Shown here piece after piece: positions 17,279-29,583 of a DNA stretch of 29,688 bases; position 1 is the first letter of the stretch, and each line of letters starts with the position of its first letter. A program made the position numbers and the translations under genes. This DNA comes from Methanomassiliicoccales archaeon PtaU1.Bin030 (GTDB lineage Archaea > Thermoplasmatota > Thermoplasmata > Methanomassiliicoccales > Methanomassiliicoccaceae), in NCBI GenBank assembly GCA_002067635.1, contig MVRB01000209.1, positions 1 to 29,688 on the forward strand, in the 5' to 3' direction. The notes beneath the pieces are model-generated. The model was not told the DNA's origin and did not search any database. It saw nothing but the letters and a program-made list of their open reading frames with translations.

Positions 17279-20200
17279 ATGGGGAGGCGGAATTTGATCT
17301 TGGCATGGTTGGATGATAGGCGGTACGTTCTGGCCGCTGCAATCCTCATCTCCCTGACCCTGACCTGCATTATTTTCTCGTCTTTCCTATTGAAAGCTGG
17401 CGTGGTCAATGCAGGCGACCTTACCTGGCCCTACTTCAACGAGCCTGGCCTTACCGGCCTGTACCTTGACAACACTCAATCGGGCCTCATTCCAAGCCAG
17501 ATGCTGGTGTACTCCTGGTTGTTCTACCTCCCCCTTGACACTGCCATCCAGGAGAGGCTCCTCTTGATGGGGGTCTTCTTCCTCATGGGATTTTCCTGCT
17601 ACTATGCTACATTCAGGATACTGCTGCAGGAGGGAGCCGAAAGGAAACTGGCCTATTTGGTCGCAGGGGCTGCCACCATAGCTTATGTGGTCAATCCTCT
17701 GAACTTTTACTACCTGGTGGATCTTTTCCTCCTTATAGGATTTGCCCTCGTCCCTCCGTTGGTATATGTGGTACTGAGGTTCCAGAGGTCAAACGGGACA
17801 ATAAAGGACATACTGGTCCACGGGGTTCTGACGGGGCTGATAATGACCGCCTCATCCGGGGATCCGAGGTGGCCGATCTGGGACCTTTTCCTTATCGGGA
17901 TCATAGTCTTGGTGTACCTGGTCTTGGGACGCTTCAGGGGCTTAGCCAAGAGTGTAGGGTTTCTCATCGTTTCTGGTATTTGCTTCACAGCCCTGAGCGC
18001 CTTCTGGATAGTGCCAACGCTGGTGGCATCGGGCCACTCCACCCTGCTTACTCGTTCGAACCTGTCCGTTAATTTTTACTATGTTCTGAACAAGTATGCG
18101 ACGCTGGAAAACACTATCGTACTTCAATCGGACTTCTGGACACCCTCTCGCGAGCTGTTCCTGATAAGCGACAGCCTTCTAAACAGCATATGGAGGGCTG
18201 CACAGCTGGTCCTACCGGCCCTCGCTTTCATGTCGCTCCTTCTTTTCAGGCGTAACCGCTCCGTCATATCACTGCTAATCATTTCCATAATCGTGATACT
18301 TCTGGCCTCCGCTCCACTGTCCCCCTTTCAACTCCTAAAAGATGCCTACCAATCGCTCGTGTTCGAGGCTCCCTTCGGCATTGCCTTCCGTACATCCTAC
18401 AAGTGGCTTCTCATACTGGTATATCCCTATGTCCTATTGGCCTCGTTCACCATCCTAGGTCTCTCCAGACTACCATCCAGGTTAAACATAAGAGTGCCCA
18501 AATTAAACCTGGACGGTCGGAGGCTGACCAAGGTGGTCGCGGGGACGCTGGTAACGCTACTTGCCTCTTCCAGCCTCATCGCGGCATGGCCCCTGGTCAC
18601 AGGGGATTGCAGGGGAGTGATCGCACCAGAAGAGCTCAGTAGCGATTATATCGAGGCCTATGATATTATCGAGCAAGCCTCGGGTGGCGATCTCAGTTTT
18701 AAGATACTCTATCTGCCTAGCAATCCGTACACGGGGTTCGAGGCACCGGGCCTCGCCGACTCCCCTTACCTGCATTATATAATTACTAACCTTGAGAGCG
18801 GGAATGTGAATACGGTGGGAGGTTTGCTGGCCCCGCTGGGGGTGAAGTACATCATCCTGGACAAATCCGATTATTCCAAGAATGTCATGGATTCGTCACT
18901 TAGAAACCAGACCGATCTCATGATTCGCTTCGAAGGGGAGCAGCTACTGGTACTTGAGAACGAGGAGTACAGCGACCAGTTCCGGCTATCGGACCTGGCT
19001 TTGAGCTTCGATGGCATCGAGAGCGGGGCAGCATTGTCTGCCTGGGATGGTTGGGTCCAGACGGACCAAGATTTCCTGGACCTCGAGGACGTCTACGACC
19101 TAGCCCCATACCTCCTGATGGGTTCTGGTTACCCTTATAATCTGATCGCCACCAAATCGATCACATCCTCTCCCTTCAAGTACGTGCCTTACTACGGGGA
19201 CCAGTCCTGGACCTGTCTGGTAGCGTATAACCCTTCAAACTACGAGTGGTACCAGGCCTTGAAGACCATGGGACTGGAGAATTGGGACCTGGACTACGGT
19301 GAGGGGCTGGCGTACACCAATGTGAGCCTGAGCTATCCAAGAGATCTACCTATACCAGACGCCGCCTTGGTAAAGTATTTCGACCTCTCGAACAGGTCCA
19401 CGGTCCAAGAGTTCATCGATAATAACTATCAGGAGCAGTTCGGGGCCCGGCTGACCTACACACAGGAGCTTAACTACATGAAGGTAAGGCTTCTCGACTC
19501 TACCGACGGATGGAAGACCATCTGTTCACCCCTTGTGAACGTGTCCTTTGGTCAAACCTACGCCATTAGGATGAACATGGCGTCCGATAATGGGTTCGAG
19601 ATACACATCAAGGTCGCCGAGTACGACGAGAACGGCACCCTACTCTCGTTCAAACCCCTTTCGGGACTGGGGAGTGGTAAGATACCTTGGACCACTGTAC
19701 CGTTGAGCTACGTATGCAACAATAGTGATGTGAAGAAGATAAGCATCCAGATCTGGCATGGTTCCAGGACCACCACTCCGCTGCCCAACGCGATATACAT
19801 CAAGGACATCTCCATCTATAACACCAGCATATTGCTCAGCTCTCCCCGCCTGGATGGCAAGATCGAAGTGGCGACAGAGGGCGAATATCATGTTTACGTA
19901 AGGGCGTTGAGCAGCCCTCAAGGAGGAAACCTGACCATGGAAATTGATGGGGTCACGGCGAGATTGGAGACCGTAGGAAAAGAATCGGTCATGAAATGGA
20001 TGTATTGCGGGACGATGAACCTATCCGCAGGCGTCCATGATGTATTGGTATTGAACACCGACGGCCTGAACGCTGTGAACCTCGTGTCCCTCATTGATGT
20101 GGGGGAGTACAGCTCCCTTCTCGAAAGATACAACTCCAAGCTTGCAGAGAAGGCTCAGGTCTATGTTCTAGACAATGGCGTTAGAACAAGATCTACCGAG

Positions 20201-20878
20201 CTTAAGCTGAACAACGATTCCTCGATAGGTCCCTTGGGGGAATATCTGGCGATGGACGCTGAGATAGAGGTGTTCTTGGAGGGTTCTTACCTTTTCTACG
20301 CCCAAAACGTTAGCGACGGCTCCTTATGGATCGATGGTAATGAAGCAGGGAGCCTGAACGCAACAACGCACTACCTAACGGTCCATCTGGACGAAGGGGT
20401 CCATAACATTGCCTTGCTGGCGGATGCAGTGTCCTACTCTGCGGGTGAGGTCCTTCTGTTCTCCGCAAATGCCGGTAACAACCTCGCATCGCTCAACGAG
20501 TTCGGGAGCACGGTGGGAGGGATAACAGCAGTGGAGAAGAAGAGCGCTTCGTCCTATGACCTGCGATTGTCCACTGACGGACCGTCCGCCTTGGTGTTCA
20601 ACAACGCCTTCGATTCAGCGTGGATCGTGACCTCCGATGGAGGTGAGACCATCTCCTCCATCCCGGTAAACACCGCTCAGAACGGCTTCGTCATAATGGA
20701 GAGTGTCAACACGTCACTCTCACTCTCCTACTCCCTTGACAGATATTACATACTGGGGATGATGATATCTCTTATCGCTCTCGCCACAATGGTCGCCGGT
20801 GCTATCATTTACTATTCTGGTTATGGGAGACTGTTGATCGCAAAGGTCCGAGGCAAGCGGAACGGGAATGGTCAATAA
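17279..20878 (+). CDS. Large membrane protein, GT-C-like (YfhO/AftD-DUF3367-like) N-terminal TM domain plus extracellular CBM-like domains and C-terminal TM anchor (paralog 1)
   Basis: About 12 N-terminal TM helices with an Asp after TM1 (AGDLTWP); YVVNP, KILYLP, LGVKYIILD, VYVRA...GG.L.+.IDG, W........NG+ motifs; single C-terminal helix with basic tail. Confidence 0.7.
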   Translation: MGRRNLILAWLDDRRYVLAAAILISLTLTCIIFSSFLLKAGVVNAGDLTWPYFNEPGLTGLYLDNTQSGLIPSQMLVYSWLFYLPLDTAIQERLLLMGVFFLMGFSCYYATFRILLQEGAERKLAYLVAGAATIAYVVNPLNFYYLVDLFLLIGFALVPPLVYVVLRFQRSNGTIKDILVHGVLTGLIMTASSGDPRWPIWDLFLIGIIVLVYLVLGRFRGLAKSVGFLIVSGICFTALSAFWIVPTLVASGHSTLLTRSNLSVNFYYVLNKYATLENTIVLQSDFWTPSRELFLISDSLLNSIWRAAQLVLPALAFMSLLLFRRNRSVISLLIISIIVILLASAPLSPFQLLKDAYQSLVFEAPFGIAFRTSYKWLLILVYPYVLLASFTILGLSRLPSRLNIRVPKLNLDGRRLTKVVAGTLVTLLASSSLIAAWPLVTGDCRGVIAPEELSSDYIEAYDIIEQASGGDLSFKILYLPSNPYTGFEAPGLADSPYLHYIITNLESGNVNTVGGLLAPLGVKYIILDKSDYSKNVMDSSLRNQTDLMIRFEGEQLLVLENEEYSDQFRLSDLALSFDGIESGAALSAWDGWVQTDQDFLDLEDVYDLAPYLLMGSGYPYNLIATKSITSSPFKYVPYYGDQSWTCLVAYNPSNYEWYQALKTMGLENWDLDYGEGLAYTNVSLSYPRDLPIPDAALVKYFDLSNRSTVQEFIDNNYQEQFGARLTYTQELNYMKVRLLDSTDGWKTICSPLVNVSFGQTYAIRMNMASDNGFEIHIKVAEYDENGTLLSFKPLSGLGSGKIPWTTVPLSYVCNNSDVKKISIQIWHGSRTTTPLPNAIYIKDISIYNTSILLSSPRLDGKIEVATEGEYHVYVRALSSPQGGNLTMEIDGVTARLETVGKESVMKWMYCGTMNLSAGVHDVLVLNTDGLNAVNLVSLIDVGEYSSLLERYNSKLAEKAQVYVLDNGVRTRSTELKLNNDSSIGPLGEYLAMDAEIEVFLEGSYLFYAQNVSDGSLWIDGNEAGSLNATTHYLTVHLDEGVHNIALLADAVSYSAGEVLLFSANAGNNLASLNEFGSTVGGITAVEKKSASSYDLRLSTDGPSALVFNNAFDSAWIVTSDGGETISSIPVNTAQNGFVIMESVNTSLSLSYSLDRYYILGMMISLIALATMVAGAIIYYSGYGRLLIAKVRGKRNGNGQ

Positions 20879-29400: not shown

Positions 29401-29583
29401 GGATCTCAGGTCAATGGTTATTATTTGCCTTCTGCAGGTAACTACTCCATCACCATCGACTACGCCTGGCAGGAGAGGTACCAAACGAACCTGGTGATCT
29501 TCATAGCTGCCACATTAATGGCGACTCTTGGGCTGGCCGCAGCCTTATGGTGGAAAAAAGGACGTAACGATACCCGTCAGTAA
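26449..29583 (+). CDS. Large membrane protein, GT-C-like with extracellular CBM-like domains (paralog 3)
   Basis: GTDS after TM1, FCFNQ, RVFSRF, YRILTLP, SVRYVV, YDVYLRH..GPGSG.L.V.VDD, YEV.V....P.FL.L.ESF..QW.A, NGY, C-terminal TM. Confidence 0.7.
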   Translation: MSSHSVDIMGWRPRIASFRTYIRELNWRRHLAFIIILTALTAVLFLGYLSGPLPTGTDSEGLVMTWDMGLSSGGLFSSWEPYSALGFQNDPIPLPSAMFALASWMGLSSSTTCKLIMAGSFWLAGAAMYLCALKISRSRLASSIAAIVFCFNQVFLSQIMEGHYFFAIGFALLPVAFLTLYLTIVEENCWAILALPMIFFAYGGSSAPHMILILSIFIVVMSILYFIQDRTRLHRIAYPSIALVLLVIPTALSRFSSGTGILNASYRLSEAQFWSYRDIFSALALRSTENSHMRGGTVQSWAIVDGLDDVMMVLSFVIPIMAVLSLYFLELRRLKLALAGTGLVMLFFALGPNQPLSGLFVWMFQNIPLLDSIRVFSRFGMFIGLVYALLVALLIAELQKRPLINLSIPHLPRLQVKRSDKLLAATVVVVMLASSSSVFIQGPSSFSLPESYAEPFELISSIEGDYRILTLPYGDVYYDTALGKYDGYPLTLTNDPGSYSQMVTGKEVAYGDHSEDYWAVWGSMVSEHKYGYRYLPILLGDTASVRYVVGQIHAPPSEVSDFRNMTGLRQYLVLSGSSTIMVNDHYSERVHAAGSLTLTTGGRADILTSLATGVVHLEDTDLVLLGQIEDSYDLQALWATSPHVIVLGGDLLQLLVENGAFSGDQLMRLGKYAEDTIDDSSDYWITSSEFVRDGSLLHDSAYTVGENVMEVALTTAGAGSYDVYLRHRTGPGSGNLSVTVDDKAAITVPTYSPLSKETWTKVGTYYLESSETLVKIWGDGSGWCSVDDLLVVPAGDVDRKTSEVSEHLKNNSSSVTYLYGPDDLATDRGQDWELVDGTEGWGLSHNGSEDPSLVVKALIPFDGLWTITLRTMNGSSAPSAIIEDIAVNGTDLGDGSYVFEANLSKGLRTIELRTSSAYSVTIESDGSDTEYGLAGAVVTYERKSPWSYEVNVNTTTPTFLKLSESFSEQWTAHDGSGTLLHYQSGSQVNGYYLPSAGNYSITIDYAWQERYQTNLVIFIAATLMATLGLAAALWWKKGRNDTRQ

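Follow-up and report, generated by a model that had tools for sequence, protein, structure and literature searches.

Three long open reading frames (ORFs), termed P1, P2 and P3 (paralogs 1, 2 and 3; P0001, P0002 and P0003), on a contig of Methanomassiliicoccales archaeon PtaU1.Bin030 very probably code for glycosyltransferases with the GT-C fold, members of a widespread, unnamed branch akin to mycobacterial AftD, that would transfer sugars to a surface glycan outside the cytoplasm. The window analysed was the entire 29.7-kb contig (MVRB01000209.1, 29,688 nucleotides) of a 1.5-Mb metagenome-assembled genome (MAG) that is 67% complete. The kind of enzyme, an AftD-like GT-C protein with appended carbohydrate-binding modules (CBMs), is already known; new are the unannotated archaeal members of the subfamily, the conserved association of three paralogs and partner GT2 genes, and the connection with a dideoxyhexose operon.

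Paralogy, fold and conserved residues

All three ORFs were found where an earlier reading of the letters without database searches (the sequence-only reading) had placed them, with no internal stops, and the paralogy it had claimed was confirmed by BLASTP at 20-28% identity, far above chance. For P1 and P2 two stretches aligned, one of 728 residues with 25% identity (E 3e-30) and one covering the last 344 residues with 28% (E 5e-28); P2 and P3 shared 23% (E 1e-18), and P1 and P3 were matched at E 1e-8 and 6e-7. The three are true paralogs, and a search of the MAG with P2 as query gave no fourth copy. Hydropathy gave 9-11 N-terminal transmembrane (TM) segments and one C-terminal TM segment for each protein. 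The single architecture described earlier was confirmed, TM helices leading to a soluble domain and beta-sandwiches and then to one last TM helix in all three, with a model core of ∼11 helices instead of the ∼12 first counted. The public gene call for P2 (P0004, 1026 aa) starts 30 residues downstream and would cut the first TM segment (TM1); the longer ATG start at 24096 was backed by orthologues (P0005, 1063 aa, 100% coverage) and by the alignment with P1.

The membrane half of P2 (residues 1-620) was modelled in AlphaFold2 with alignment A1, which holds the N-terminal 600 residues of 81 homologues, and the model was confident (pLDDT 94.1, pTM 0.93). The best PDB match in Foldseek was AftD (6w98_A, E 4.9e-11, TM-score 0.61 by query), and 28/28 PDB matches at E<=1e-3 were GT-C enzymes, comprising STT3, AftA, ArnT, DPY19, AglB and PglB besides AftD; a fold other than GT-C, which the sequence-only reading had named as the outcome that would tell against it, did not appear among them. 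The GT-C helix arrangement and the extracytoplasmic domain that follows it were both present. Among reviewed proteins AftD of Mycobacterium smegmatis and M. tuberculosis came first at ∼E 8e-13 (7.5e-13), with Swiss-Prot YfhO far behind in the same search at E 1.1e-5. The proposed likeness to AftD and YfhO therefore stands for AftD, clearly the nearer relative, and is much weaker for YfhO. The nearest AlphaFold-DB clusters were of ∼1000 aa, automatically named PTPS_related or GT-C_AftD, with TM-scores up to 0.82 by query, and included Q97AB4 (TVG0913498 protein, 1038 aa), which from its locus-tag prefix we take to be from Thermoplasma volcanium.

An exhaustive HMMER search with P2 1-620 yielded 996 cluster representatives at E<=1e-3, mostly 830-1870 aa long, of which 140 also reached E<=1e-30. 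P1, P2 and P3 thus belong to a large unnamed family spanning archaea and bacteria. The membrane domains of the three proteins matched zero Pfam or NCBIfam models at E<=1. Among the 81 family members PF11847 (GT-C_AftD) was matched by nine (best E 2e-13), DUF6541 by four and PTPS_related by one.

The sole invariant column of A1 was the Asp after TM1 (D52 of P2, 81/81). Loss of this residue among homologues had been named beforehand as an outcome against the GT-C assignment, and its conservation held; in P3, the aligned residue is D67 (in LVMTWDMG) and not D58 (in GTDS) as first read, and a G-x5-D spacing fits all three proteins (P1 G41..D47, P2 G46..D52, P3 G61..D67). Columns conserved in at least 90% of sequences were G46, W68, P173, W253, P256, G351, P368, R377, P455, W487 and D548; the R377 column was R/K in 79/81, K381 was found in 75/81 and K105 in 68/81. 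The D52, K105, R377 and K381 positions were retained in P1, P2 and P3. Superposition of P2 on AftD gave offsets that rose from 12 (N-terminus) to 18 (residue 453), which would put D52 near AftD D41 and R377 near AftD K361, both essential in AftD (10.1101/2019.12.22.885152). The motifs quoted in the sequence-only reading were all present in the ORFs and most proved to be family-wide: L.LP is the family consensus KVxWLP, and VKY lies on the strand preceding the near-invariant D548. WDxDYG and G.NAVNL, reported for P1 and P2, are also family consensus (WxxYLxxxGIxNWDFDYGxGLVxT and GFNAVNL), and both are without counterpart in P3.

Confidence was likewise high for the ectodomain model (P2 445-1056, built from a 39-sequence alignment; pLDDT 90.6). 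A CBM6/CBM35 beta-sandwich was recognised by both profile and structure, the CBM_6/CBM_35 Pfam cut-offs being reached by P2 only (residues 714-802), and the order of soluble GT-C domain, CBM beta-sandwiches and membrane re-entry was that of AftD. The beta-sandwich motifs noticed earlier were located in the CBM6/35 module, and the W...NG module with its C-terminal TM was recovered as YDPxW...NGF followed by a TM helix; in the model P2 953-1022 is a further beta-sandwich and leads into a long helix that forms the final TM. Between 8 and 25 residues follow the single C-terminal TM in all three paralogs. The insertion specific to P1 gave a weak CBM_4_9_1 match (E 0.032, below cut-off) and is probably an extra beta-sandwich.

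The glycan island and its distribution

The paralogs lie inside a glycan island (3052-29688) with a guanine plus cytosine (GC) content of 52-54%, near the fifth percentile of the genome's 5-kb windows; the genome as a whole stands at 58.8%, the left flank (1-3000) at 59%, and the GT2 gene at 25460-26377 at only 49%. Such low GC is a usual mark of surface-glycan islands that are variable or horizontally exchanged. Besides a five-gene sugar-nucleotide operon, the island carries three GT4 genes, five GT2 genes, of which one is truncated at the contig end, and a smaller GT87/PMT_2-like GT-C gene beside a GT2 resembling dolichyl-phosphate (Dol-P)-mannose synthase (DPMS). Coordinates are collected in Table 1.

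Table 1. Features of the paralogs and of the surrounding island (positions of the window)
Feature	Position	Strand	Basis
P1 (P0001), AftD-like GT-C enzyme, 1199 aa	17279..20878	+	ORF; paralogy to P2
P2 (P0002), nearest of the trio to the family consensus, 1056 aa	20926..24096	-	ORF
P3 (P0003), most divergent copy, 1044 aa	26449..29583	+	ORF; BLASTP; alignment
GT-C membrane domain (∼11 TM helices) and soluble alpha/beta GT-C domain, P2 1-620	22237..24096	-	
Codon of P1 D47, invariant Asp column, first outer loop	17417..17419	+	A1, 81/81 Asp
Codon of P2 D52, invariant Asp after TM1, putative catalytic base or metal ligand	23941..23943	-	A1, 81/81; AftD offsets
Codon of P3 D67, aligned to the invariant Asp (not D58)	26647..26649	+	A1
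First CBM6/35-type beta-sandwich, WDFDYG and GFNAVNL inside, P2 654-804	21685..22137	-	
Second CBM6-like beta-sandwich, P2 821-935	21292..21636	-	
Terminal beta-sandwich (YDPxW...NGF) and C-terminal TM anchor, short basic tail, P2 953-1055	20932..21240	-	model secondary structure; hydropathy; weak YfhO C-terminal match, E 0.038
P1-specific ∼177-aa insertion, residues 681-857, nested in first CBM	19319..19849	+	P2 alignment breaks at P1 680/858 (BLASTP)
Sugar-nucleotide operon: short-chain dehydrogenase/reductase (SDR) epimerase, cupin/dTDP-sugar-isomerase-like, nucleoside triphosphate (NTP) transferase, 4,6-dehydratase-like, DegT-type pyridoxal phosphate (PLP) enzyme	10183-14845	+ (co-directional with GT2, GT4, P1)	
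GT2 upstream of GT4 and P1	14928..15980	+	Pfam PF00535; generic GT2 likeness only in PDB
GT4, ends 17 bp before P1	16081..17262	+	Pfam Glyco_trans_1_4, Glyco_transf_4
GT2 co-directional with P2, insertion sequence (IS) element between them here	25460..26377	-	Pfam; synteny with L035; generic GT2 likeness only
IS110-family insertion between GT2 and P2	∼24138..25404 (provisional ends)	-	DEDD_Tnp_IS110 and Transposase_20 in ORF 24319-25341
Third GT2, first 25 codons (MASVSVGVCAYNEE...), 30 bp after P3, cut by contig end	29613..29688	+	open-ended ORF
Dol-P-mannose-synthase-like GT2, one C-terminal TM	5570..6391	-	PDB 5mlz (P. furiosus DPMS) E 1e-21; GtrB, ArnC ∼E 1e-8; AglJ-like NCBIfam, below cut-off
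Fourth, smaller GT-C-type protein, 490 aa, GT87/PMT_2-like	4049..5521	-	Pfam GT87 E 2.4e-7, PMT_2 E 1e-5; ∼10 TM segments

P1 is the last gene of a co-directional run of dideoxyhexose genes, GT2, GT4 and P1, and the sugar-nucleotide operon is conserved in Methanomassiliicoccus sp. MXMAG1. In relatives, the GT2 paired with P2 lies ∼100 bp upstream of it. The IS110 element that separates the two genes here is absent from the syntenic MXMAG1 locus (L035) and from a further related genome (G029), and its GC (57.7%) agrees with the genome and not with the island; the element does not belong to the glycosylation system, and its insertion may be polar on P2. At the place of the truncated gene after P3 the MXMAG1 locus has a GT2 of 294 aa, so the island runs beyond the window. 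By its sequence matches the DPMS-like GT2 is the only clear candidate in the window for a synthase of a lipid-phosphate-sugar donor, and with the small GT-C it makes up a canonical donor/transferase pair (4049-6391). A 335-aa ORF (3052-4059) with an N-terminal TM segment and no Pfam or NCBIfam match overlaps the small GT-C gene by 11 nt, and its product may be a partner of that protein.

The order of P1, P2 and P3 and the adjacent GT2 genes were conserved in four related genomes (L035, G029, G041 and G078); L035 showed the same arrangement without the IS element. Three near-complete genomes of the same genus kept the order at 51-86% identity, with P1 orthologues at 51-84%. P3 orthologues were found in five related genomes (28-82% identity), and P3-type copies stood alone in two further genomes. 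The P2 type was present in 9/101 genomes sampled from the order, the window's genome counted, and in 4/10 genus genomes searched. The archaeal origin thought probable from the letters alone was supported by these data, the best named homologues being from Methanomassiliicoccus MAGs and the trio recurring in genomes of the same genus. Other named relatives, recovered with a closer 12-sequence alignment, came from Bathyarchaeia, Heimdallarchaeota, Methanoperedenaceae, Nitrosocosmicus, Chloroflexota and Bacillota. Each paralog grouped with its own orthologue in the tree (support 100), and P2 lay nearer Bathyarchaeia and other sequences than P1 or P3, which argues that the copies are old and did not arise by recent local duplication; P1 and P3 formed long branches of uncertain exact position. 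A protein from a Chloroflexota MAG (L018; JADFVG010000035.1, 8001-9863) was nested with high support in an archaeal clade (Methanoperedenaceae, Heimdallarchaeota), a placement that could be inter-domain transfer or a binning error.

Proposed function and alternatives

Each protein is predicted to begin in the cytoplasm, to cross the membrane in ∼11 TM helices and to carry the invariant Asp (P1 D47, P2 D52, P3 D67) in the loop that first emerges on the outer side. Outside the membrane would lie a soluble alpha/beta GT-C domain and the CBM-type beta-sandwiches, two or three in number, and the protein would close with one last TM helix and a short basic tail. On the pattern of their homologues AftD, ArnT and PMT, the sugar would be loaded onto dolichyl phosphate by a GT2 in the cytoplasm, a flippase would turn the lipid-linked sugar to the outer face, and each GT-C enzyme would there pass it to a growing surface glycan gripped by the CBMs. 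We infer the lipid-linked donor, the glycan acceptor and a division of labour among the paralogs by analogy with such enzymes. The ancient divergence of the paralogs and their retention as a trio make it probable that they differ in linkage or in the position used on the acceptor, like the Aft and Emb enzymes with their one shared donor. Different donor sugars for the paralogs are possible and not needed, and a single donor made by the DPMS-like GT2 for all three has the same likelihood as a separate sugar for each. The earlier suggestion of different sugars was not borne out; a single GT2 of the window is similar to a Dol-P-sugar synthase.

The earlier suggestion of S-layer glycans as the target was likewise unsupported. 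The envelope of Methanomassiliicoccus has been described as atypical and possibly double-membrane, and the related Thermoplasmatales depend on lipoglycans and a glycocalyx (PMC4243693), so an S-layer glycan is not the default expectation. The genome encodes AglB elsewhere, so the trio would be additional to N-glycosylation and not its oligosaccharyltransferase (OST). A wider proposal, which we put forward only tentatively, is that the trio, the fourth GT-C and the DPMS-like GT2 form an archaeal extracytoplasmic assembly line, building or branching a large surface polysaccharide or lipoglycan from dolichyl-phosphate monosaccharides. Such a system would be the archaeal counterpart of mycobacterial arabinan and lipoarabinomannan (LAM) assembly in a lineage (Thermoplasmatota/Methanomassiliicoccales) without a typical wall, and the 3,6-dideoxyhexose from the upstream operon might be incorporated by it.

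Several observations weigh against the assignment of the trio as AftD-related surface-glycan transferases. The PF11847 cut-off (26 bits) was reached by none of the three, P2 scoring 14.4 bits and P1 and P3 giving no match, and the A1 profile searched against PDB sequences found neither AftD nor any other GT-C enzyme, returning only spurious repeat matches to designed Kelch-like proteins in its last 30 columns. A single-sequence phmmer search gave a CBM-level match only, and no sequence bridge to AftD was obtained when ten divergent family members were scanned for PF11847. For the GT2 partners of P1 and P2 the likeness is to generic GT2 enzymes (chondroitin and heparosan synthases, GmaR) and not to Dol-P-sugar synthases; a dedicated Dol-P-sugar synthase for each paralog was thus unsupported, the gene pairing being real and the partners generic. 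Neither the MAG nor three near-complete relatives with the locus yielded a GtrA-type flippase.

The remaining adverse points concern P1 and P3, in which some consensus polar residues are lost: the near-invariant D548 is replaced (by S and H, respectively), the common E275 is lacking too, and P3 is also without the consensus W253 and W487 and the WDxDYG motif. Judged from these substitutions P1 and/or P3 may work differently or be inactive. If P2 were the sole working enzyme, P1 and/or P3 would be catalytically dead glycan-binding or scaffolding partners, as their long branches might also suggest. Both proteins retain the invariant Asp, K105, R377 and K381, however, and both are full-length and stop-free, with 51-84% identity across genus genomes; P3-type copies stand alone in other genomes, and D548 is only a putative catalytic residue. 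We consider dead paralogs unlikely.

We judge it very unlikely, in turn, that the trio are polymerases or ligases that transfer blocks from lipid-diphosphate-linked oligosaccharides and not single sugars from Dol-P. OST-type enzymes among the structural matches do use diphosphate-linked oligosaccharide donors, no polymerase is evident in the window, and the GT2 and GT4 adjoining the paralogs look like cytoplasmic chain builders; AftD, the closest relative, uses a monophosphate-linked monosaccharide (10.1101/2019.12.22.885152), however, a DPMS-like GT2 is present in the island, and the Wzx-type flippases of the genome are encoded elsewhere, outside the window. Slightly less probable again is action on proteins, by which OST-like or PMT/YfhO-like enzymes would modify envelope proteins directly. 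For both halves of the molecule the higher score is that of AftD, the tandem CBM6/35 modules indicate a glycan ligand, and the genome's separate AglB also speaks against it. Reading WDxDYG as the WWDYG motif of OSTs was rejected on position, because the motif lies inside the first CBM (P2 696-703), ∼250 residues past the last N-terminal TM, and P3 has no such motif; neither a WWDYG directly after the catalytic TMs nor an STT3 Pfam match was found in the trio, and the STT3 match of the genome is on another contig (C87).

To our knowledge, giant GT-C enzymes with built-in lectin modules are well studied in mycobacteria only (AftD and Emb); the mycobacterial Emb enzymes are drug targets. Here a distant, unannotated branch of the AftD enzyme type, represented in archaea and bacteria by ∼1000 sequence clusters, is seen to persist as a constant trio of genes in methanogenic archaea from anaerobic and gut-type environments. 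The trio genes are concrete candidates for surface decoration in Methanomassiliicoccales, and their patchy, low-GC distribution suggests a role in strain-level surface variation, for example in virus or host recognition. The practical value is chiefly for annotation, as these proteins are without a current family assignment.

Comparison with known systems

The nearest characterised enzyme is AftD, mycobacterial arabinofuranosyltransferase D (PDB 6W98/6WBX/6WBY; PF11847, formerly DUF3367), with which the trio share only 14-16% identity. AftD has three CBMs and one sandwich, whereas the trio have two CBMs and one sandwich, with an extra nested module in P1. The C-terminal four-helix bundle (TM13-16) with which AftD binds acyl carrier protein is absent from P1, P2 and P3, and the window holds no credible ORF for a separate small partner with at least three TM segments that could replace it; the only small three-TM ORF (9495-9803), probably spurious, lies antisense within a GT4 gene. 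In an archaeal host a dolichol-type carrier lipid is to be expected, unlike that of AftD. Nothing points to arabinofuranose, the sugar of AftD, for the trio, the decaprenyl-phospho-arabinose pathway genes not having been searched for in the genome.

YfhO (PF09586), which acts in teichoic-acid glycosylation in B. subtilis, resembles the trio in its GT-C domain, large extracytoplasmic region and final TM helix. The C-terminal end of its profile weakly matched P2 882-1025 (E 0.038, 12.8 bits), and neither P1-P3 (at E<=1) nor any of the 81 homologues matched its N-terminal membrane domain. PTPS_related (PF10131), DUF6541 and DUF6311 are automatically named families of the GT-C clan; the closest AlphaFold-DB clusters carry the PTPS_related name at similar length, and the language-model neighbours of the trio carry these names too. 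These models are annotation labels without experimental function and were matched by none of P1-P3.

Three-component periplasmic systems consist of GtrA, GtrB and a Gtr-type GT-C, and a GT136 enzyme with a CBM, ORF12, is known among them (PMC11127046). The trio share with these systems the logic of a GT2 lipid-phosphate-sugar synthase working together with a GT-C that carries a CBM for the acceptor glycan, and the placing of GT-C genes beside GT2 genes. They differ in that no GtrA was found and the GT2s paired with P1 and P2 are not recognisably GtrB- or DPMS-like, and the trio enzymes are twice the size of the three-component GT-Cs and bear tandem CBMs.

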